Shown piece by piece: positions 262-62,334 of a stretch of 64,000 nt of DNA. The notes beneath the pieces were generated by a model, which was not told where the DNA came from, made no database searches, and saw nothing but the letters and a program-made list of their open reading frames with translations. Origin of the DNA: Leucoraja erinacea (taxonomy: Eukaryota); the NCBI RefSeq assembly GCF_028641065.1, contig NC_073396.1, positions 10,044,001 through 10,108,000 on the forward strand, written 5' to 3'. Made by a program: the position numbers and the translations under genes. Position 1 is the first letter of the stretch, and each line of letters opens with the position of its first letter.

Positions 262-658
262 CTGAAAAAAACCCACTTGATTATTAAATAAACTAATAAT
301 ATGTTTTTAAGGTCCAATATCAATAATGTAATTATTGAGTTATGCAAAGGAATGTAAAGTCTCGAAACAGGAGGATCCAGGTTTTCAAAGAGGGCTCTGA
401 TAAATATGTGTAGAGTAAATGTGTTTAGCCTAGTCTGACATTTTATCAATCATGTTATTTAGAAGACATTGGAAAATATGAATTTGAAATCTAAATGCTG
501 TGGCATATATGCACCTTCAATTTATTTTGCGAAAAAAAAAATCAACATGATTCCATATTCTAAGTTTATACTGTTATACACGCTTATAAGACAGCAGGGT
601 GACACTTCTAAAGATAAAATGCTCTGTTTGTATCGCCCTACATCAAAATGAACCTTAC

Positions 659-802
659 TTGAAATCAGGTTTGCTTGTCGGTTAGAAGCAGGAGTTGCAG
701 TACGATCAAATGATTTACTTTTCACTAGAAGAGGTTTCATAGGAATGTAGGATGAGACATCATCTTTTCTTGCCACTGCTAGAAGTTGTTCTTTGCGTTT
801 GC
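659..802 (-). CDS. KATNIP: KATNIP exon, (S)KRKEQLLAVARKDDVSSYIPMKPLLVKSK...
   Basis: Resembles human HKRERNLSAKRKDNAEVFVPTKP; cag| ... |gtaagg; phase 1 to 1. Confidence 0.88.
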
Positions 803-1631
803 CTGTAGATAGATGCATTGATGAATAATTTGTTATTTACGGATTTATCTTACCTTGTTATTAGATAGATCAGGAGTTTAATTAATTCTATTCTCGCCTA
901 AAATTCTTACCTGAAAGAAAACACAATGTAAATTGTCCCTATAGTAGAGGATAGTGCTAGAGTAGGGGGATCATTGTTCAGCACAGATTCAGTGGGCTGA
1001 AGGGCCTAGTTCTGTTCTGTATCTCTAAACTAAACACCCTTTCTGAACTTCCATCCACAGTTAGTACTCTGCATTTTTTTTCCTCTTCATCCTAATTGCC
1101 CTGATACTGCCAAATTATTTTGAACACCACCTTTGAGGATAACTATCCCATAATATATGCTGTAACTGATTTATGTTAGATCCAATAATATCATGTGTTA
1201 TACAAATTATATTCGAAAGTACAAGAAATGTCCATTTGGAGATTTGGCATGTTGCTAACTAAACTACTGAACTTCTACAAAGTTCATTATCAATGACTGC
1301 ATTTTATTAGTCACACTTTATAGAACTACGATGCAAAATGAATCTTACCACCTTGTCCTTCCCTAAAAACTCAGTTGTTTTTTTTGTGGTGTTTCAAGAA
1401 ATATCACAAAACAGTTATATTTCAGTCATGTTGTTTAAAATACACACACTTGTTACTAAAACACATCACATTATTTTGCATTCCATATATCGTCAGTATT
1501 TAAAAATTGCCAAAGGTATTAATCCAAAACATTATTATCAATCATGCTGTGTATAAAAACAATACATGTACATTTAGAATTCTCGTAATGGCAGAATAAA
1601 ACAATAGGTTTATCAAATCTTATAAACTTAC

Positions 1632-1778
1632 TTTTCGTATTAGGACCAAAATCAAGGACAATCAGATCACCAGGGCGTAGTTTTGCCTCGGGGTTTTTCT
1701 GGAAAAATTCTTTATTAAGCTGCATATCTTTCAAAGTCTCGGTTGGCTCTGGAGTTTCAATCTGCTCCAAAATGTCAT
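1632..1778 (-). CDS. KATNIP: KATNIP exon segment b, (D)DILEQIETPEPTE...KLRPGDLIVLDFGPNTK
   Basis: Resembles human EDILSEPEPE and PGPDTLVVLEFNPASKS. The 3' donor is A|gtaagt; the 5' boundary is a putative ctctgcactcacag| acceptor. Confidence 0.75.
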
Positions 1779-1881
1779 CTGTGAGTGCAGAGTGACTGTC
1801 CGTTTAGCAGCCTCACAGATCCCAGTGGTAGGAAGCTGTTTAGGGCCTCTGGTCCGTTCTTTTAAGCTCGATATCTCTTGC

Positions 1882-2023
1882 CTGTCGCTCGTTTTCCAGG
1901 TGGAGTTTGATCTTCTTCGCATTGTCCTTGGCCATCCTGCGAATTGGAGTTCTCATTGGCATTGCTTTTCTCCTCCTCATTGAGCTGGAGATCATCAGAC
2001 TGCTGCAGGCTTTTTCTCAATAG
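1882..2023 (-). CDS. KATNIP: KATNIP exon segment a, LLRKSLQQSDDLQLNEEEK...
   Basis: tag| acceptor, and the start resembles human ELRRSLELSVNLQ. This frame hits TAA at 1864-1862 unless spliced at the GC donor CAG|gcaaga (1881). Confidence 0.6.
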
Positions 2024-2070
2024 CTAATACAACAGGTGATCATAAATAAAGAACTAACAAATACAAGAGA

Positions 2071-2720
2071 AAGTAAGCAGTTAAGATGATGATCATTTGT
2101 GTCTTTCACGCTTACAAAAGACTTCAGTCCAATGTTACAGAGTTGATTAACAACTAAAATGTGGATGGACAACAAAATCAGAATTTCCCAAACTCCATGG
2201 TCATCGATATCTCTTTGATCAAGAGACTGGATTTAGTTTTTAGCTTTTTAGGCGCGTGGAAAACGAGGGTAGGGAGGCGCCAATAATCCTCTCTGCCTAC
2301 CCCAGAGCCTTCCTGTCCGAGCAGTTGCAGGTGCGACACGTATTGATGCGTACGTTACAGACTCCACCGTGCCCCTGTAGAAAGTCCACTCAGGAAGTGC
2401 AGTCGCTATCCCGTTTCACGGTCCCAGTGGTGTTCCTGGACCAGGTGAGGTTGTCCGTTATCTGCACACCGAGGAACTTTATGCTCTCCACTCTCTCCAC
2501 TGCAGTGCCACTAATGTTGAGCGGTGTATGCTCTGGCTGCGCCCTCCTGAAGTAAGCCGTTAAGATGACGATCATTGTGTCTTTCATGCTTACAAAAGAC
2601 TTCAGTCCAATGTTACAGAGTTGATTAACAACTAAAATGTGGATGGACAACAAAATCAGAATTTCCCAAACTCCATGGTCATATAATTTTCACTGGATTT
2701 AGTTTAGTTTAGGCGCGTAA
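2071..2720. repeat. ~130-bp direct duplication flanking a Rex1/Babar RT fragment
   Basis: 2071-2204 is nearly identical to 2550-2682. Between them, 2256-2550 (minus) encodes HTPLNISGTAVERVESIKFLGVQITDNLTWS followed by deletion-riddled RT sequence. Confidence 0.8.
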
Positions 2721-4477
2721 ACAGACCTACCGGGTCCATGCCGACCAACGTTCCCCGCACACTAACACTATCCTACACACACTACGGACAATTTACAATC
2801 TTACCAAGCCAAATTACCCTACAAACCTTTGGAGATCTAATGTAAAATGAGGTATTATATAGCACAGATTTTATAATTATAAAATAGGAACACAGATCCA
2901 CATGCGCAATTTGTATAATGATAATATATTAAAACGGTCATGCACACCTTAATATCTTGCATGTTTAGCAGTATTTTTTCATTGCCAGCATCACAGCATG
3001 TTTCAGACGTCCTTAATGGCTTTATGAAGGAAGACTCTGATAACGTACAAGAATTGCTTCTGTGTCTGGAAGAATTATTAGCAAGATTCTGCAAGGAATT
3101 TAGAAAAAGAAAATTTGCAGAGAAAAATTACATCTTGAAGCACAGGCAAACATTTGGTTCTGACCCAAACTGTGACCTAACCATGTCCTCCAAAGAAGCT
3201 GCCTGACCTGTTGAGTCACTCCAGCATGGTGTTTTTTTTTTGTTGCAAACCAGCATCTGCAGTTCTTTGTATACTGTGGACGGTTCGATTGCAATCATGT
3301 ACAGCCTTTCCGCTGACTGGTTAGCACGCAACAAAAGCTTTTCACTGGACCTCGGTACACGTGACAATAAACTAAATCATACCAAATCAAATCAAATATT
3401 TTTAATAAAACATTTAAAAATCACATTCCACGTTATCGAGCAGCATCTATTGTTGCCCAGCTCAACACTCTGGAATTATTGTAGCCCCATGTAATAGATT
3501 TCTGAAATTCTTGAACCACTTCATATTCTTGTAAATCCTATTTCAACTTCAACCTCTAACCAAGTACTTTTGTCAAAATTTCCACCAGGTTTGTGTGCAC
3601 TTGTATTTTACATGTCTATTGTGCCTAAGGACATACTTTTATTTTGAAAGTGCTATCTAAATCCAGGTTTGTATGGGATACATATCATTCTTAGATTATA
3701 AAGATATTTCTTCCTGCTAAAAAAGTAATTCTCCTGCAGTGCCTCTGTGAAGAGCTTGCAACCAGATAAATTAATTGAACGTTAGCAACAACTTTTGAGA
3801 TTCACGAATTTAGCCAATCTTAAATGAGATTGACTAAACTTAAACTTAATCAAAGGTTTGCCACACCAGAGAAGAAATAAGGGAAAATATGTATCTATTC
3901 AAATGGATGTTGAAAGCAATCATAGCCTCAGAATTTTTCTTAGGAAGGGATGAGAAGCATTTAGTCTACACTGTGAATTACCACAGAACTGTGGAGGCCG
4001 TCAATATTATAAGGCCAGAATAGAACATTAATAGTCAGGGGTTTGGGGAAAATGGGAATAGGGTTGTATTAGAATTGATTGAAGAAGCTTGATGGGCCGA
4101 ATGGCCTAATTTGTAATTTTGTGAGGATACAAATCAAAAACATTTGATTTGTCAAGACATTTTTGGAAATTTCATATAATCCTTAAAGTTTTTTGTAAGT
4201 TAAACTGTGATCGATTTATGGAAGGAAACATTTGCAAGAATTAAAATAAATTTTTCGCATTGGCTAGACTGTGGTAACATTATATATTATAATCCAGAAT
4301 TAACATTATTCATTTTAAAATGGGAATCTGTTGTTTTAAATTGGGAGAAGCTCATACAAACATTAAAGATCGCAAGAATTAAAATAAATTCGCCTGTTGG
4401 CCAAACATAACATTTAAGCTCGCAAGATACAACTTGTGTTGTGCGTTTTGTTTTGACAAAAAGAAAACATGAGTTAC

Positions 4478-4606
4478 CTGAGAGCAATTACACATTTCCT
4501 GTGGCTCCATATTAACACTTTCATAAACTTCAAAATCATTAGAGTAATCCACAGGTGAACCAAGGTGTAGCTGTGGACCTTTCTCTGTTTTAATATGGAC
4601 CGAAGA
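4478..4606 (-). CDS. KATNIP: KATNIP exon, SSVHIKTEKGPQLHLGSPVDYSNDFEVYESVNMEPQEMCNCSQ
   Basis: Matches human SVQIRTEAGPRLHIEPPVDYSDDFE; cag| ... CAG|gtaact; phase 0 to 0. Confidence 0.92.
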
Positions 4607-5471
4607 CTGTAACAAAATGCCAGTTATATAGATCAGAACAGGTAAATATTCTGACATTAAACTAGAACACCACACAATTTATTCTTCTGCTTACAATTTA
4701 GAATTTGATTGATTTTATGTGATTCAATCCACACTGTATTTCTATCAGGGCTCAAATATTTGCTTATATAATACTTTCTATATAGAAACATATACATTTG
4801 TTGATAAAAGTCCACACTGAAATCTATAACAACAAGAACTGAATAATGACAGAAATATTTCGATTAATTTTCACATTTTTAAATCATAAAGTGAAAATAG
4901 TAGTAAAAAAGTAAATTATTAAGTTGATTAAAGCGAATTCCAAGCTAACAAAATCCAACTTTGAAGTTATGTTATAGTTACTATATCCAGATCATACACT
5001 CTGCAAATGGGAATGTCGTTTTTAATAGCCGTCAATGATTCTACTGTCAGTCAAGATGAGACATCAGACAATAAATCTGTAATATACTGAAATCACAGAG
5101 GCAACCTCTCTCAAAAGTGTCATTAAACTGAGAAATACCCAAGAGATTTAACTCTCTAAAAACACTTAATATTACACTTGGTATTGCAGTAGTGTAGTTC
5201 AGAGACTGCCTCGACTGTGGGTTGGAGAGGGGGAGGTCACACAGCTGTCATTCATGTTCAGAACAAAAAATGACACAGACTTTAATATGCGGGAACTTTT
5301 ATAAAGGCCTGTCTGATTGTAACAAAGAATATTTAGTTTACTTTAGAGACACAGCAATGGAAACAGGCACTTCAGCACATCGAGTCCATACTGACCACCG
5401 ACAATTGTTCACACTAATTGCATTTTATATAACTAGTGTATTCTACAATGGTTTACTCCAATTGACTGTAC

Positions 5472-5581
5472 CTGCACCCAGCCTTTTCGCTGAACTTTGT
5501 CTGGAGCAGTTTGGGTTCTACGTTTTAGAGATTCTAATTCTTGTAGCTCTTCGGTATTGAACGGTGATCTTGAAGCAGAAT
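5472..5581 (-). CDS. KATNIP: KATNIP exon, (D)SASRSPFNTEELQELESLKRRTQTAPDKVQRKGWVQ
   Basis: Matches human RTAPSKVQRRGWHQ; tag| ... CAG|gtacag; phase 1 to 0. Confidence 0.92.
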
Positions 5582-5819
5582 CTAAAATTAATTTTGAATA
5601 CAAAAATTTTAATGGATAAATTAAATGTGAACACAGCTTATTGATTCACCTGATAACGTTTAAAACCAGTGAAATTCGTGGGTGGTAACTTCTTAAAGAT
5701 TTACATTTTAACATATTAGGTCCCATCCCATCCTCACCACAAGGTGCATTTGAATCATATAATTCCCGACCTTACAGCTGACTAGAAGGACTCAAGAAGA
5801 TGGCTCATGACCATTTTCG

Positions 5820-6135
5820 CACTGGCCACATGGGATGGGTTTGAGTCCCGGGGCCGTCGAGGGCAAAGGGAGACCCAGAGTGGAGGGCCATTGGGAACAA
5901 AAGGGCCCGGCGTGGGGGGACGGACGTCATGTACAATGGGAGATCGGGCCCAGAGGGCCGTGTCGAAAGGGGGGGGGGGGGAGGGGGTATGGGAAAGACC
6001 ACTGGGGCCAAATATGGGGTACTTTGTAACCTTTTCGGCACCCTTTACAGACACTTTGTATGCCTATGTATGCAAAACAAAGCATCTCACTGTGACTTGT
6101 CACATGTGACAGTAAAAGTATCCAATCTAATCTAA
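5820..6135 (+). mobile_element. G-rich non-autonomous retroposon with LINE-type tail; related copies at 22464-22770 (-) and 32625-32870 (-)
   Basis: Shared 3' end gggtactttgtaac...cactgtgacttgtcacatgtgaca(g/a)taaagta followed by a microsatellite tail. Confidence 0.6.
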
Positions 6136-7228
6136 ATGGCAGCCTAACTGGTGACACCCACAAAGAAATGAATAAACAAAGAAGAATTGAGATCGTGGGT
6201 GGGCAGGTCATATAGCCTGCTCCTATCCGTAACAACTTTCAGCTACCTACAGTTAAGCTCTCTTTACTCAATTATTGCACATTCATCGTCCTCTTCCCCA
6301 AAACATACTGGATTCCCTGTTCATATCTGGATCCACTAGTGACTGCTGAAACAACAGATACACTTCCATTGACTAATGCATGGAGTGTAAACACCATACA
6401 GTCAAGTTGGGTTGGCAAGGTCAATTTTATGTTCTTCATGATTTGTGTTCTGCTATCTTTCAGATGAGCTTTAATTTGAGCTCCCACCTGCTCTCTAAGA
6501 TGGATGTAAAAAAGATCCCTTCACGCCTTCTTGAAAGCAAGCATATTATTCCTGAAGCCTGGATCAATATTTATCCCACAATCATTAAAATCCAATTATT
6601 AGATCATTAATACATTAGTCTCTATGGACGTTTGTTGTGTGCAGATTGATTACTGACCGTGTTTCTTGCACTGCAACAGTGATTACTTTTCAACAAGCTC
6701 TTACAATAAAGCATTTTAAGATTATGAAATCCACTTTCAAATTCAAGTCTTTCTTCCTTGAATACAAAAGACCTTTGTAATTGCCTTCAGACTAAAGCCT
6801 CGACAAAATAAATGTGTCCTACCCTAAAAAGATCAGAAGACTGTAGATAAAACAACTTACTTTATTTCCTAAGCAAAGTAGCTACCAGGAATCAGTGAAG
6901 CAACAACGAAAAAGATAAAACTGAAAGATAGAGCATTTGAAAGGAAACTACTTCATATCAATAGACAATAGACAATAGGTGCAGGAGTAGGCCATTCAGT
7001 CCTTCGAGCCAGCATCGCCATTCACTGTGAACATGGCTGATCATCCACAATCAGTACCCCGTTCCTGCCTTCTCCCCATACCCCTCGACTCCGCTATTGT
7101 TAAGAGCTCAACCAGGTAATGATGGATCCCAGCACTGTCCAAAGTTCCCAGTGTCAGGCTATCTGAACCCTCCTGTCTCACAGGGAGGAACTATATTTGA
7201 GGTTTCCCAAACCTACCGTGTCAGAACC

Positions 7229-13344: not shown

Positions 13345-14225
13345 AAGTAAGTAAGTAAGTTTTATTTATATAGCACGTTTTAAGTCAACTCGCATTGACA
13401 CCAAAGTGCTTTACATAAATTAAATAATAAGTTCCATTACAAACCATAAAAAAAAAGGTTAAAAAAAAAAAATGAATAAAATGGACACAACACATTATAG
13501 AGTTCAACACAAACGTCCCCCCCACAGCAGAATCAAAACTTTCCACTGCGGAAAGGCACCAGAAAGTTAAGTTCTCTTCCTCTGTGAAACACCCGAGGTC
13601 GGGACCCATTTGTGGCCTTGCAGCCAGTCCGATGATTTTCAGGACCCTCTTGCCGTGAAGATGGAACTTCGGCGTCGGGTGAAACATTCCTCAGCGGCTT
13701 GGAAAAGTCTGGAGCGGCTGCCACCTCCCCGGAGACCTGGGCACTCGTAGCCCTCAGGCCGCACCGGTTGGAACTCCGACCCCGGCAAACTCGAACCCTG
13801 GCTCTGCGGTGCTCCAAATCCAGCGCCGCCCGCGGCCGGATGCCCGCAGCCCCAGCTCCGCGATGTTTGGATCGACGGCCACAGCGCTCCGGAGCTTACC
13901 GCACGGCGACCCGGTAAGGCATCGCCCACTCCGTGTTGGTATCCCAGCGCTGCGCCACCGCCGCCGAAGCTGTAGTCCCGGCCGGTCCCGACAGGAAACG
14001 CCGCTCCATTCTCGATGGTAGGCCGCGAGGACGGGGCGAAGAAGCAGCTTGGAGGGATGCGGCCTCTCCGACCAGGTAGGTGACTAAGAAATAAAGTTTC
14101 CCCCTTCCCCACCCCCACATAGAAGACCTCCGCTAACATTTTTTAACAGGACTTAAAATAAAACGAAATAAAAAAAGGTGTAGAGACGGACTGCGGGCAG
14201 GCTGCCATTCACAGACGGTGCCATT
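13345..14225 (-). mobile_element. GC-rich non-autonomous retroposon with L2-type tail
   Basis: GGCACC..ATGGCAGCC head, T-rich stretch plus G-run, CpG-rich body, tail gtaaagcactttgg...gtgctatataaataaa(ctta)n. Confidence 0.75.
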
Positions 14226-14940: not shown

Positions 14941-15035
14941 CTGAAGAAGGGTCTCGAGCCGAAACGTCACCTATTCCTTTGCTCTAGAGATGCTGCCTGA
15001 CCCACTGAGTTACTCTGGCATTTCGTGTCTATCTT
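14941..15035 (+). mobile_element. Penelope-derived pseudo-LTR repeat with hammerhead core
   Basis: CTGAAGA-AGGGTCTCGAGCC-GAAAC-GTC followed by the family body gagatgctgcctgacccactgagttact. Confidence 0.7.
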
Positions 15036-17274: not shown

Positions 17275-19080
17275 AAAGTCAAGAGTGCAACCAAAGACAC
17301 AATCTTTAGAGGATCCAAGTTACTGAGGTTAGTGTAGCAGTGTTTGCTGGGAAGAAGCTGTTCTTGAACCTGGTGGTCACAGTATTCAAGCTTTTGTACA
17401 TTCTTCCCAATCGTAGCGATTAAATGACAGCATGGTGATATTTATTAGTTGCTTTTTTGAGGCAGCAGCTGCTATATATCCCTCTGAAGGGAGGCGGGTG
17501 GTGGGAGGTCAGCATCTACGATAGATTGAGCAATGTCTACCATTCTCTGTAGTCTCCTTCCTTTTTTGTGTGTTTGATTTACCCAACTAGGCTGTGAAGC
17601 AATCAGCATGTTCAAAGATAGAAACATAAAGCTGGAGTCAGATTCAGATTCAGATTCAGATTCAACTCAGCGGGTAAGACAGCATCTCTGGAGAAAAGGA
17701 ATATGTGACGTTTCATACGTCTATCTCTCATACACCTGTAGATGTTCGATAGAATATTCACAAACATATTGAATCTCCTCAATCTTCTAAGGAAGTAGAG
17801 ATGTTTCTTTGTGATTGCATTGATGTGCTGGGCCCAGGACAGATCTTCAGAGATATGCACTTAGGAACTTGAAGCTGTTGACTCTCTCTACCACTGTCCT
17901 ATCCATAAAAACAAATGTAGATTCCGGGCTTTAGCTTCCTGAAGTCAACAATCAGTGCCTTGGTCTTACTGACATTGTCAGCAAGATTATTGTTCTATAC
18001 CAATCAGATTTTCAATCTTTTTCCTGTACTCCAGCTCATCATTATTCATTATTCGTCCAACAATGGTGGTATCATGGGCAAATTTAGAGATGGCATTGGA
18101 GCTGTGTCCAGCTGCACAGTCACAGTTATAGAGAGAGTGGAGCAGAGAGAGAGCGCAGAGCCTTGAAGTGCTCCTGTGTTGAAAGTTATCAAGGAGAAAA
18201 TATTGTTGTTCATTCGTATTGATTATGGTGTGCCAATGAGGAAGTCGAGGATGCATAGGGACAAGCTGAGACCCAGTTCTGTGAGTTTGACGACAAGTTT
18301 AGAGGAGATGAGGGCGTTGAATGCCGAGTTGTAGTCGGTGAACAACAATCTGACATAGGTGGCCTTATTGTCTAGGTAATTTAGTGCAGAATGGAAAGCC
18401 AGCGAGAGAGTATCCCCTGTTATCTCTTAAGCCAGTGGGCAAATTGCAGTGAGTCCAGGTCCTTACCAAGCCAGGAGTTGATATTCATCATAACCAGCTT
18501 CTCTTGAAACTTCACTCACTGCAGATGTTAATGTTACTGTTCTATAGTCAGTGATATGCCAACTTATTTTTCTTGGGTACCGGTATTATGGATGCCGTCT
18601 CAAAGCAGGAGGGAGGTCAAAGACTTCAGTGATGAGAGGTTGAAATTGTCTGAAAAAGTCAGGCTAGTCAGTTCATGCAGGTTTTAAGAACATGACCAGG
18701 AATCGTTGCCGTGCGTCGGGGCTGAATGCTTCCCAAGTGTTCATGAAGGATCTTCACAATAAGCCTCAGTGACTGAGATTGCAGCATCGCTGGGGATTAT
18801 GTCGCGTGGGAGGCAACGACTAGGTACTTGGATATTCTCCTTTTTGAAGTAAGCTTTAAAAGCATTGAGTTTGCCCGAGAGTGATGCCTCACTATCACTT
18901 GAGCTACCACTTGGTTCTGCCTTGTACGAAGTTTCGGCATGCAAGCACTGCCACAGTTGCTAAATGCCCAACTCATCCTCCAGTTTAGACTGAAAGTACC
19001 TCTTTGCTTTTCTGATGGTCTTGTCAAGGTCGTACCTGGTCTTCCTATAGGACCCTGCATCACCAAGACCTGATCTTCAA
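17275..19080 (-). mobile_element. Rex1/Babar-type LINE ORF2 relic (~1.8 kb, frameshifted)
   Basis: Peptides HISEDLSWAQHINAITKK..LYFLRRLRRF, LYNCDCAAGHSSNAISKFAHDTTIVG and a DYNSAFN-like motif. Confidence 0.85.
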
Positions 19081-19567: not shown

Positions 19568-19915
19568 TCGTGCCTGCAGGACACCGATACGTGAAGCAGC
19601 CCCCCCGCCCATGTCCCACTCACGCTCCATGCCGCCGGTCGGGCGCGGGCTCCCCTAGCCTCGGGCCGCCGCCTCCAACTTCCGGCCGCGCTGCCGGTTG
19701 CGCCGGTAACGGGGGCGGGGAGGAGTGGCCATCAGAGCGCGCTTCCGGTCAGAGCAAACCAATCGCGCCGCACCTTCGCTGCCTGGCAACCGGGTAGGGC
19801 GGCCTAGTCTGCAGGGGTCTCCGCGCTCCGGCCCTCGGGCTCCAGTCACCGAGCCCCCAGGCTTCCCTGTGCCCCGGGGGCGTCTCCTGCAGCCGACTTT
19901 GAAGACGCGGAAGGT
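19565..19915. promoter_or_regulatory. CpG-island promoter of KATNIP, probably bidirectional, with RFX X-box, ETS, GC-box and CCAAT motifs
   Basis: CpG-dense. GTTGCGCCGGTAAC at 19697-19710 and GCTGCCTGGCAAC at 19778-19790 are X-box-like; CTTCCGG at ~19679 and ~19742; GGGGCGGGG at 19712-19720; CCAAT at 19759-19763. Confidence 0.8.
19624..19630 (-). CDS. KATNIP: KATNIP coding exon 1 (ATG GAG C)
   Basis: Minus strand reads ggcggcATGGAGC|gtgagt: strong Kozak context and a consensus donor inside a CpG island. Its phase-1 end fits the next exon. Confidence 0.8.
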
Positions 19916-20279
19916 ACAAACCAAAGATACTAGAGGATCTAGTTCAGTAAATGTGATGAAAATGTCTCAAAAAAAGGCTTTAACCTCTAGTATCTTTGGT
20001 ACAAACCCTGGTTGCTGGAGTAACTCAAAGCGGGTCAGGCAACAGCAGCAGCAGCAGCAGCATTATTATCATCATCCCTGAAGAACACGGACATTGCGTG
20101 CTATTTTCGTGATATTTATTTTAGTTGTTTATCTTTTAATATTTTACCTTGTATGTATCGTTAGCTTTTAGAAATGTTTGAATGCTGCACTGGCTGGCTG
20201 ACATTTTTAAATTTCGTTGTACATGGTTCATGTTACAATGACAATAAAGAAACTATTCTATTCTATATATACAAGTGCC

Positions 20280-20810
20280 ATCTGTAGGATGGAACCTCAG
20301 ATGCTGGTTTACACCGATGATAGATACAGGAGGATGCTGGAGTAACTCAGCGGGACAGGCAGCATCTCTGGAGAGAAGGAATGGGCCCAAAACGTCACCC
20401 ATTCCTTCTCTCCAGAGATGCTGCCTGTCCCGCTGAGTTACTCCAGCATTTTGTGTCCATCTTCTGCCAAATCCCATTCTGGGGTACACAAAAAAGCTGG
20501 AGAAACTCAGCGGGGTGCAGCAGCATCTATGGAGCGAAGGAAATAGGCAACGTTTCAGGCCGAAACCCTTCTTCAGACCATAGATTCATTCAGATCATTA
20601 CCCTTCCTTCGCTCCCTAGATGCTGCTGCACCCGCTAAGTTTCTCCAGCTTTTTTTGTGTACCTTCGATTTTCCAGCATCTGCAGTTCCTTCTTAAATCC
20701 CATTCTGAGTATAGGCGCCTTTTTATATAGTGGAGAATCTGAAGAAGGGACCTGCCCATCCATATTCCTGCTGCAGAGACGCTGCCCGACCCGCTGAGTC
20801 TCTCCAGCCC
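20280..20810. repeat. Cluster of inverted Penelope pseudo-LTR repeats
   Basis: Alternating-orientation copies of gagatgctgcctgtcccgctgagttactccagca; hammerhead core on minus at 20576-20549. Confidence 0.8.
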
Positions 20811-23029
20811 TCCTTGTCCTTTTTTCCGAGTTATATTAAGGATTATGTAAACTCAGGTGAAGAAACCAAACAACATCCCCCAGCACTGAAGATGCAACGA
20901 GGAAAGAAACCTGTAACACCTTCGGTTAGATATATGTTATGCTAACTTATTTAAATTATTTCTGGGATCTTCTTTCCCTGTTTTTTGTTTATGTAAGGCT
21001 ATGGCAAATCATACCAACATTCCCAAAGACTGGATTTCGTTTGGATCAAGACAGCACATATTTGTCTTATTAATTAAACAAAACGTTTCAGTGTCCTTAG
21101 AGCAGGAAACCAAGGAAATCTTAATATTTTACACATTGAGCCAGGGCACAAGTTATCCCTTTACAGTATAAACACAAAGCAAATCAAGGGTTATGTGGAG
21201 ATGACAGGAGAATGAGGTTGTGGCGGAAAGATAGATTAGCCATGATTTAATGGTGGAGTATTCTCGATGGCCTACTTCTATGACTTACGAAATGATAAAT
21301 CGAATTTAATGTCACATCAAATCACATCATATCTTCCTAAATTACTACAGAGAAAATAAAAAATCAGAGGTAGGTTCACTGTTCAAATTAAATGAACATT
21401 TTTTCCACTTGCTTTTCAATTCTCTTCATCTCTTCCTGACTTATTTTGCTAAAACCTTTTTTTGAGACATTTTCACCACCTTTACTGAACTAGATCCTCA
21501 CCAAAACCGTTCTCATTTCATGCACAACTGAGAGACCAGACTCACAGCAAAGACTCCAAGACTTCCAGACACACTTCCAGGTCTTTTCTCTTATAACCCT
21601 TCCATTGAGACAGAAAGGACTCCAAGGTCGTGACTGGGAGTTTGATCCGCTGCCTATTCAGCTTGGAGCTGCCATTCACTCAGCACCCTGAACACGTGGA
21701 TGAGTCGAAGGAGGGGATCCCACAAGCTGCTCCCAAGCTCACACTCGATCTCGACACCTCCATCTTCTGCCAGGGGTTTGTTCAGCTGAACAAACGGCAT
21801 CCTAAACCCCTCCGCCGGGCGCATCCGCCGCTCACGGTGTAGCGGGCAAACAGGCGTGCGGATCAAGAATCTTATCACACTGGTATTCAAACACTTAAAT
21901 AGGAGCGGCATAGGACAATATACTTGCAAACGGGATTAGTGCAGATGAACAAAAAGATGAATGTGATGGGCAGGAGGGCCTGTTTGTAGCTGTACAACGC
22001 TCTGACTATATGCAGCATACCAGAAGTAAACAGAAGACCTACTGTTGAGACTAAAGACGATACTCTGGTCCAAACAAAGAGGGTTTCTTTTACCGCTTCT
22101 AAATGCAATCTGAGCCTCTCTTAAATGAAATGAATTGTGACCACCGCAAACAGTACAAGTCTGTTTTCTGCAAACTTTTCCATGAAACTACACGCCAGCT
22201 TCGCAAAGGCAAAGATGTCTGCAGCATCTTTAACAATTTGTGCAGGATGCATGACACTCTCGGACTATTTGGAAAACGTAGCATTCTCAGCGGTTTGTCT
22301 GCAATGTCACCAAAAGGTTAAAAAACATTTATGATTGATCTTTGTGTCCAGACCACTTGTTATTGTTAGAATAGGTTTCGCATTTGTGGAACAATTTTGA
22401 AAGAAAATAGATTAATAATGCCCTCAAAGAATTTAAATCACCTTTAGTTGTGTAGAAACTTTGGAATGGAATGGGATACTTTATTGTCACATGTGACAAG
22501 GCACAGTGAAATTCTTTGCTTGCATGCCCTAGGTATGCAAATAGTCGCCCATAAAGGGCGTTTACAGTACCCGTGCGCCAGGTCGGCCTTTGTTCTTCCC
22601 CATCCCCCCTCGCTCACGGCAGTCCCCCCCACGCCTTGTCCTCCATTGTCCATTGTTCTTTCCCCTCCCTCCTGGTGGTCCCCCATGCCATGTCCTCATC
22701 GTTCATTGTTCTTCCCCCTCCCTCACGGCAGTTCCCCACGCTGACAAAGTTACAAAGTACCCCCGCCAGCTCCTCCTTTGTTCTCTCCCCCCAACTCCCA
22801 TTCCCCACCAAAGAACCAGCCTCCACCGCCGAGGCAGAGAATTCCACAGACTCACAACTCTCTGTGTGAAAAAGTGTTTCCTCATCTCCGTTCCAAATGG
22901 CTTACCCCTTATTCTTAAGATGTATAAGATATATTGTTGAATGTATAAAGTTGGTATCTCATGAGTAAGCATGTAAAGGACAGTGGTTATCTAATGAACA
23001 GCTTCTCTTTCATCTCCCCTCTCTATTTC

Positions 23030-49127: not shown

Positions 49128-49870
49128 AGTCAAGTCAAGTCAAGTTTATTTGTCACATACACATACGAGATGTGCAGTGAAATGAAAGTGGCAATGCTCG
49201 CGGACTTTTGTGCAAAAGACAAACAACAAAACAACCAAACAAATTATAAACACAATCATAACACACATATTCTTTTACATAATAAATAATAGAAGGAAAA
49301 ACGTTCTGTAGAGTTAGTCCCTGGTGAGATAGGCGTTTACAGTCCGAATTGCCTCTGGGAAGAAACTCCTTCTCAACCTCTCCGTTCTCACTGCATGGCA
49401 ACGGAGGCGTTTGCCTGACCGTAGCGGCTGGAACAGTCCGTTGCAGGGGTGGAAGAGGTCTCCCATGATTTTGTTTGCTCTGGAGTTGCACCTCCTGTTG
49501 TATAGTTCCTGCAGGGGGGTGAGTGAAGTTCCCATAGTGCGTTCGGCTGAACGCACTACTCTCTGCAGAGCCTTCTTGTCCTTGGCAGAGCAATTCCCAA
49601 ACCAGATGGTAATGTTCCCGGACAAGATGCTTTCCACCGCCGTTGCGTAGAAGCACTGTAGGATCCTCGGAGACACTCTGAATTTCCTCAATTGCCTGAG
49701 GTGGTAAAGGCGCTGCCTTGCCTTACTCACCAGTGCTGAGGCGTGTGATGACCATGTCATATACTCAGAGATGTGGACTCCCAGATATTTAAAACAGTTC
49801 ACCCTACCCACAGGATCCCCATTTATACTCAATGGAGTGTACGTCCTCGGATGATGTGCCCTCCTAAAGT
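49128..49870 (-). mobile_element. Young 5'-truncated Rex1/Babar LINE with an open RT C-terminus
   Basis: Uninterrupted DFRRAHHPRTYTPLSINGDPV...FKYLGVHISEYMTWS...SGKRLRC...RSFFPEAIRTVN* frame, 3'UTR and (cttga)n tail. Confidence 0.9.
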
Positions 49871-50133
49871 CGAGGAGATGCGCTGTGATGGATGTTTGTG
49901 TAAATTGTGTTGTGTCTTGGTTCTTTCTTGTGTGTATGACTGCAGAAACAACATTTCGTTTGAACCTCAATGGGGTTCAAATGGCAAATAAATTGTATTG
50001 TATTGTTGTATTGTATACAGATCAAACTTCAAACTGGTAAGTTCTTGTTTAATCTTACTATTATGTGGGAATAAGTGAAAAACAATATAGGTTTGGAAGA
50101 TAAGGCAGATAAATCATGATTTAGTTTTGTTTT

Positions 50134-61935: not shown

Positions 61936-62334
61936 TCGCATGATTGCAGGCCAGAACTACAGCAGGAACTACAGGCCAGGAAGTGATTGGGAAACGGTTA
62001 CCCCCTTACCCTACCTACCTCCCCCACATAAAAATACTAAGAAATACTAAAAAACATACTTTTAAACAGACTAAAAATAAAAAAAGATGGAAAAACAAAC
62101 AGAATGTAGGCAGAGGCTGCCATCATGCGGCGCCCAACTTGGATTTGGTGCTATAATTCTGGAGCAACGCTATGACTGTACGCTATGTTCTATGACTGTA
62201 CGCTACGGGTTGTGTTTATGGCTCATGAAGATAAGGGTTCCTTTGTATTTCCTGACACCATCTCCAGAGCAATTATAACCCTAGAATCTTTGGCAACTGT
62301 AAAGCTTTAGTATCCAGTAATATTCACTGGATTC

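Follow-up and report, generated by a model that had tools for sequence, protein, structure and literature searches.

The mechanism behind scars of the kind considered here is already known from flies, and P-like elements of vertebrates are known from zebrafish. The end motif of the P superfamily is CANRG, and YARNG is another end motif. The Drosophila P transposase makes a 17-nt staggered cut and gives 8-bp duplications, and long staggered cutting is described as a distinguishing feature of this enzyme (PMC7776569). Excision of a P element leaves chromosome ends with 17-nt 3' overhangs (PMC2895639). In Table 2 of that paper all junctions of the insertion class (12/12) keep 13–17 nt of both ends and carry fillers of 1–49 nt inside the 8-bp duplication, and the templates of the larger insertions almost always lie in flanking sequence. 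The flies that gave these junctions were Rad51 and polymerase-theta mutants, the wild type giving mostly partial gap repair products (PMC2895639). The P target is a 14-bp palindrome, ATRGTCCGGACWAT (PMC2577343), and ~100 bp or more at each end is required for movement (PMC1562414).

Zebrafish Pdre2 has 8-bp duplications and ends that start with CA (bioRxiv 10.1101/2024.03.22.586318). Excision by zfTHAP9 leads to larger flanking deletions; the available text of this preprint describes no natural scars, and no mapping of the cut positions of the vertebrate THAP9 enzyme was found in it. P end sequences were also looked for in PMC3698922, the available text of which gives none. No natural P-type scars in a vertebrate genome were found in the literature as judged by titles and the starts of abstracts; most subscription papers were outside this search, so the family described here may already be catalogued.

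When a hAT element is excised, the flanks are left with hairpins and the end comes away whole (PMC5499845). Gap filling that captures DNA between TIR ends in animals is mostly local and guided by microhomology, and the gaps concerned are internal, with a median of 4.6% of the element removed (PMC8277862). Cryptons are described as having no terminal inverted repeats and as carrying direct repeats of 4–6 bp; for the animal Cryptons, the available text of these sources reports that no terminal repeats were found (PMC3212892, PMC13465315, PMC8969392, PMC5753468).

The locus examined is an insert of 85 bp in a 64-kb window, the term window meaning the whole stretch of DNA that was analysed. Arms at 19921-19936 and 19984-19999 and copies of TACAAA at 19915-19920 and 20000-20005, all pointed out in the initial annotation, check against the letters of the window, and the arms are perfect complements. 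The full inverted repeat is 17 bp long and perfect (19920-19936/19984-20000). The full direct repeat is 10 bp long (19913-19922/19998-20007), at a spacing of 85. Because the direct and inverted repeats overlap, the window alone cannot pick the register; four fit equally well, with duplication and arm lengths of 10/14, 8/15, 6/16 and 4/17. The 16-bp arms and 6-bp core first proposed are a valid register (6/16), as one of these four, and fall short of the full extent of both repeats.

The geometry is real and far beyond chance. Two tests each found one site in the 64-kb window and none in 30/30 windows shuffled locally: (a) an 8-bp repeat with a 10-bp arm and at most 1 mismatch, and (b) an 8-bp repeat with a perfect arm of 15. 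A hairpin with exactly this arm is expected by chance ~0.002 times per 2.6 Gb, an assumed genome size. The DNA fold of the insert consists of just the expected stem (z -4.0). Elsewhere in the 64 kb the arm has no match with fewer than 3 mismatches; one look-alike with 3 mismatches and three with 4 have no clear meaning. The single 3-mismatch look-alike lies at 62276-62293 on the minus strand, and no partner was seen.

In the 8/15 register an 8-bp duplication, GTACAAAC, surrounds a 77-bp piece with 15-bp inverted ends that start with CA. The left copy of this putative target-site duplication occupies 19914..19921 (+) and the right copy 19999..20006 (+). The left transposon-end stub would be 19922..19938 (+), comprising 15 nt that form a perfect inverted repeat with the right stub and 1–2 nt (A, T) that are common to other copies; the right stub would be the 15 nt at 19984..19998 (-), the perfect reverse complement of 19922-19936. 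The element termini would read CAAAG...CTTTG, i.e., CA...TG. The duplication matches the P target consensus GTCCGGAC at 5/8 positions and the hobo target GTNCGNAC at 5/6 specified positions, and by this measure fits hobo at least as well as P. The CA start and the duplication target both fit hAT as well, and the CA...TG termini do not discriminate P from hAT.

Four of the 24 listed runs of public sequence data were compared with 19575-20284 at 85% likeness, namely three DNA runs, one each from organisms A, C and D and represented by contigs, and an oligo-dT RNA run of organism A. The insert is present at the identical site in all three organisms (3/3), in D on a single contig over 19575-20093 and in A and C on overlapping contigs. 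The insert is therefore old and fixed. The empty allele suggested as a check on the original proposal was not seen: no contig or read skips the 85 nt in any of the four runs (4/4), with the reservation that contigs show presence, not absence.

The interior of the insert is a copy of nearby DNA. The filler at 19933..19984 (+) corresponds to a template 1.5 kb downstream at 21448..21499 (-), which carries no arms and is the only other match in the window. Of the 50 letters at 19933-19982, 47 are identical to 21499-21450 read on the minus strand (E 4e-17), and the match starts inside the left arm (GAGG, 19933-19936). Filler and left stub overlap by 5–6 nt of microhomology, or by 11 nt when a snap-back step is counted, and the first 11 letters common to filler and template are found at just two places in the 64-kb window. 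At two positions the contigs carry the G of the template: 19952 in all three organisms (A, C, D), and 19983 in C only; therefore the copy was once nearer its template than the window shows.

Each of the three DNA runs has one further depth component that covers the interior only (27.8, 42.7 and 16.2). Together with the listed contigs this component accounts for the depth of the 19959-19982 bin to within 1.4, and it would represent the template locus. Since the interior is matched by just one further contig per DNA run in the three runs, the unit of 77–85 bp has not been multiplied. A mobile MITE of the whole 77–85 bp was also considered and is ruled out, the interior not being multiplied.

The arms, by contrast with this single interior, recur. 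Two further contigs of organism C carry both arms, joined through different interior letters: one has the 13 letters GATATACTATACT between 19937 and 19984 (depth 49.1), the other the 8 letters ACTAACTG between 19938 and 19985 (depth 37.6). The depths are similar to those of single-copy contigs (34.4, 42.7). The shorter side of the second joint is listed as 21, and joints with a side of fewer than 30 letters can arise from repeats. No variant letter is listed in 19909-19951 or 19984-20002, i.e., within the arms. Counted from CA at 19922 and TG at 19998, the end lengths kept are 17+15 nt at the present locus, 16+15 nt in the 13-letter contig and 17+14 nt in the 8-letter contig. All six ends seen, with presumed outer starts for the organism-C copies, thus keep just 14–17 nt, a range to be read with the proviso that stubs of at least 31 nt would break contigs and escape notice. 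Both short fillers are largely made of arm pieces. Arm-piece tests gave P values of 0.0017 (full 4-mer cover) and 0.05 for the first filler, and 0.16 and 0.008 (7-nt arm substring) for the second.

The right limits of the two other organism-C copies lie at ~20001 and ~20005 by depth arithmetic, not letters, with no excess in 20007-20030; by the same arithmetic ~3 and ~7 letters of the right duplication are apparently shared. The ~7 shared letters of the one copy may reflect ascertainment, in that similar flanks align more easily, or a fixed core. The two copies seem to have different flanks and to stop short of the outer CC at 20006-20007. These contigs support the conclusion that the arms belong to a family with differing interiors.

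Some further signs in the same runs are weaker. A contig of organism A (run X1 record 2) is identical to window positions 19922-20000 and has 65 unlike letters left of 19922; it may be a rearranged allele or a paralogue, and its start at 19922 is exactly 30 letters from a variant site, which makes a graph effect possible. A contig of organism C (run X5 record 10) matches 19876-19936, that is, the left flank and the 15-nt arm, followed by 20 unlike letters, and may show, at a related site, either a different scar or an end of the parent. On the left arm, depth past 19934 that is left unexplained amounts to 134, 2,373 and 1,478 letter-depth in A, C and D, respectively, so this excess varies more than 10-fold between runs. 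The arm-gap-arm pattern (gap 4-34) was found in no metagenome contig, a search that is uninformative for a vertebrate repeat.

These results bear on the original explanation of the site, a tiny non-autonomous element that leaves as a circle and relies on a tyrosine recombinase to enter GG-N6-CC sites. Tyrosine-recombinase sites consist of inverted arms around a 6–8-bp spacer, and the 6/16 register is geometrically valid in these terms; as in a Crypton (PMC3212892, PMC13465315), there is in one register a short direct repeat at both ends. Arm copies with variable interiors had been predicted, and the two organism-C contigs with both arms and different fillers bear this out, one of the two apparently sharing most of the core. 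The predicted GG-N6-CC flanks are another matter: both copies end, on the depth arithmetic, before the outer CC, and the organism-A contig begins matching at 19922, not 19921. Recombinase integration predicts neither a locally copied interior nor arm-derived fillers, and an interior that is a one-off local copy in a unit that was not multiplied does not describe a mobile element. The likeness to Cryptons does not hold up either. The available text on Cryptons describes elements that encode a recombinase and are without terminal inverted repeats (PMC3212892, PMC13465315), whereas the insert has perfect 15–17-bp inverted ends and a 10-bp direct repeat, with no recombinase in the window and no conserved outer CC found. 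The linked recombinase reading frame that had been anticipated was not encountered, no Pfam match to one being found among 302/308 frames of at least 60 aa and 129/305 non-repetitive frames of 40–59 aa in the window. An ordinary DDE-type duplication, named at the outset as an observation that would count against a recombinase, is compatible with the locus, as an 8-bp duplication does fit. Finally, the failure to find the 85 bp missing from any contig or read in the four runs gives the model no empty site. The recombinase model is very improbable. Because a P-type target is palindromic, a G and a C would stand outside the core, hence the loxP-like look of the site.

We favour, with moderate confidence, the interpretation of the insert as a dead, fixed excision scar of a cut-and-paste transposon of the P-superfamily type, with a templated filler. 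An element with ends starting CAAAG would have entered a GC-rich repeat, with a duplication of 8 bp. Its excision, if it took the course known for Drosophila P, would have been by a long staggered cut, so that ~17 nt of either end stayed on the chromosome as 3' overhangs. The gap was then closed by synthesis, a step that can be traced in the letters of the insert: the left end is microhomologous to a site 1.5 kb off, from which ~45 nt were copied and joined to the 15-nt right stub. In a putative snap-back, base 17 of the left end would pair with base 13 and add CTAGT, exactly the next five letters, and the product would create an 11-nt match to the template. The likely repair route is end joining of the polymerase-theta type. 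On this interpretation the other copies of the family are scars too, each with its own filler. As for the 77-bp remnant, it can probably no longer move; because P elements need ~100 bp or more per end to move, remnants of 39–77 bp are probably dead.

The traits of a P scar found here are the 8-bp duplication (in one of four registers), the retention of at most ~17 nt per end, the templated filler and the CA...TG termini. The observations on which this interpretation draws are the geometry, the local template, the microhomology, the fixation in three organisms and the recurrence of the arms with other fillers; what we infer is the register, the superfamily to which the parent belonged, a staggered cut and the enzyme responsible for repair. 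No parent element or transposase was seen in the 64-kb window.

The resemblance is closest to the P{wa} junctions of Drosophila (PMC2895639), which have an 8-bp duplication, end stubs of 13–17 nt, templated filler, CA...TG termini and GT....AC target edges. Unlike those junctions, the insert is natural and fixed, lies in a vertebrate-type genome and has another end sequence; its filler comes from 1.5 kb away, whereas the fillers of the Drosophila junctions come from the flanks of the break. The P ends start with CATGA in Drosophila and CATAC in zebrafish, as compared with CAAAG here. With zebrafish Pdre and zfTHAP9 (bioRxiv 10.1101/2024.03.22.586318) the locus shares the features of a vertebrate P-like family, 8-bp duplications and short ends starting with CA, but the Pdre end sequence, CATACCTGTCAAC, differs from the ends of the insert.

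An unlikely alternative is that a hAT-like element, or another DDE element with an 8-bp duplication, was cut down by abortive gap repair or by internal deletion with local filler, to give a minimal Pack-TIR. The short stubs would then mark where repair stopped, not a long staggered cut. The start of the arm resembles hobo-type ends. As in hobo and other hAT elements (PMC3276498, PMC5499845), there is an 8-bp duplication with a target of the GTN..NAC type, and it is in this reading that the match to 5/6 specified positions of the hobo target (PMC3276498) counts. Capture of local DNA between TIR ends, guided by microhomology, has precedents in animals (PMC8277862). Single-copy Pack-TIRs hold nearby DNA, mostly from within 5 kb, between transposon ends with microhomology at the breakpoint, and the insert likewise has a single-copy filler from 1.5 kb away with 5–11 nt of microhomology. 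Pack-TIRs, however, retain most of the element body, and the gaps described in PMC8277862 are internal and small, unlike the insert, which retains stubs of 15–17 nt only; this is as in an excision-triggered scenario that the same paper rates as minor. Direct hAT excision leaves no terminal-repeat stubs (PMC5499845), whereas the insert keeps both. Retention of both ends excludes a direct hAT footprint, not a derivative of gap repair. In such a derivative both stubs, freed with the whole end, would need re-synthesis that halted at 14–17 nt in 6/6 ends.

The insert has repeats directly at both flanks. On the left, 19868..19913 (+) is a piece of a high-copy GC-rich repeat, recognised by contig depth and loose ends, that would be the insertion site of the element. 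Summed contig depth on 19863-19910 is 3,455–7,166, versus ~10 just upstream (two runs), and the loose ends of the repeat lie before 19868 and behind 19904/19908. The loose-end consensus behind 19908 resembles, by eye, both flanks of the insert; therefore the element had inserted into a copy of the repeat. About a dozen RNA reads fall on 19868-19908, the part of this repeat that is embedded in a CpG-island-like stretch.

The single-copy stretch left of the scar (19575..19867, no strand assigned) is CpG-island-like and a putative promoter. Over 19575-19912 the GC content is 0.72 and CpG o/e is 0.9, and the interval holds CCAAT, ETS, GC-box and X-box half-site motifs. RNA run X23, a single library of which ~5 in 100 reads were read and 397 aligned, has no reads on 19575-19862, ~1 on the interior and no joint. 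Of the proposed position at a promoter edge, the CpG-island-like flank stands; 19868-19908 proves to be high-copy repeat, and the one RNA run, too little to rule a promoter out, puts no reads upstream of it. The duplicated splice donor proposed with it did not gain support, the GT following AAG at 19914 and TTG at 19999 and no joint appearing in the one RNA run.

The right flank of the scar, 20013..20044 (+), belongs, on motif matches, to an abundant repeat that carries hammerhead-like cores and is present here as a fragment. The 14-nt core of this repeat has 32 matches with at most 2 mismatches in the window, and several motifs of the form CTGA-N-GA...GAAA are present. The repeat is probably Penelope-like, judging from its motifs and the available text of PMC11167929 and PMC8557442. 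Minimal hammerhead-like cores in the abundant repeat were noted at 14941 (+), 63230 (+), 52489 (-), 20576 (-) and 25431 (-), all below the Rfam gathering score; Rfam gave no hits at gathering score over the whole window. At 20334-20449 and 20490-20655 lie an inverted repeat with perfect 52-bp arms around a 12-nt spacer and Penelope-like copies nested in inverted orientation.

The right junction, 19991-20007, is identical in 17/17 letters to a Penelope-like copy at 59359-59343 (E 0.002). If the insert is a P-type scar, this match has no other explanation than coincidence. It speaks for a patchwork that arose without any DNA transposon, through template switching while the adjoining Penelope-like repeat was inserted or repaired, as do the membership of the right flank in the same repeat and the presence of several inverted structures within 1 kb, such structures being frequent in Penelope-like insertions. 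The inner 7 letters of the arm, however, are absent from the Penelope-like repeat copies inspected, and exact copies of the two arms are present on other contigs, where flanks and fillers differ; a one-off event (~0.002 expected per genome) cannot account for this. With the arms on other contigs, a one-off patchwork is in our judgement highly improbable.

Farther along, agreement with the window ends at 20093 in the contigs of all three organisms (A, C and D), which go on with 41–54 unlike letters. This point directly precedes a very high-copy LINE-like 3' tail at 20095-20266, and the piece 20093-20266 may be absent or different in the sequenced individuals of A, C and D. A CAG run lies at 20043-20063, and the organism-A contig is 3 letters longer over 19971-20093, possibly by one extra unit. 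Among 431 reading frames of the window, Pfam found no host gene, recombinase or transposase and gave three weak hits below the cut-off besides ALKBH8_N; these frames comprise 302/308 of at least 60 aa (all but six G-rich ones) and 129/305 non-repetitive ones of 40–59 aa, repeat-masked frames entering only from 60 aa upward. The ALKBH8_N frames are at 49317-49976 (-), with E 8e-12 and above the cut-off, and at 17615-17860 (-), with E 8e-4; both are presumably LINE ends. Exon-like frames without Pfam hits at 522-4678 (-) and a second GC-rich stretch at 13500-14140 suggest a minus-strand gene.

Overall, the feature picked out by the initial annotation is real, and the enzyme class assigned to it was most likely wrong. 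No function was demonstrated for the insert. Where a transposon leaves its scar in a palindromic target, the result looks like a loxP-type site, and caution is called for with sites of this appearance. There is about an even chance that a family of natural, fixed scars here records a vertebrate transposase of the P/THAP9 type cutting its ends in the germ line with a stagger of ~17 nt, the breaks having been mended by templated end joining that reached over more than 1 kb. If so, one could read from these scars how an element that is perhaps no longer active cut its ends and which target motif it used, together with its repair spectrum and age. A hard edge near 17 nt across a set of natural scars would amount to direct evidence from the genome that a mobile vertebrate element shared the chemistry of Drosophila P, and the set of scars would also serve as a fossil record of germ-line end joining.
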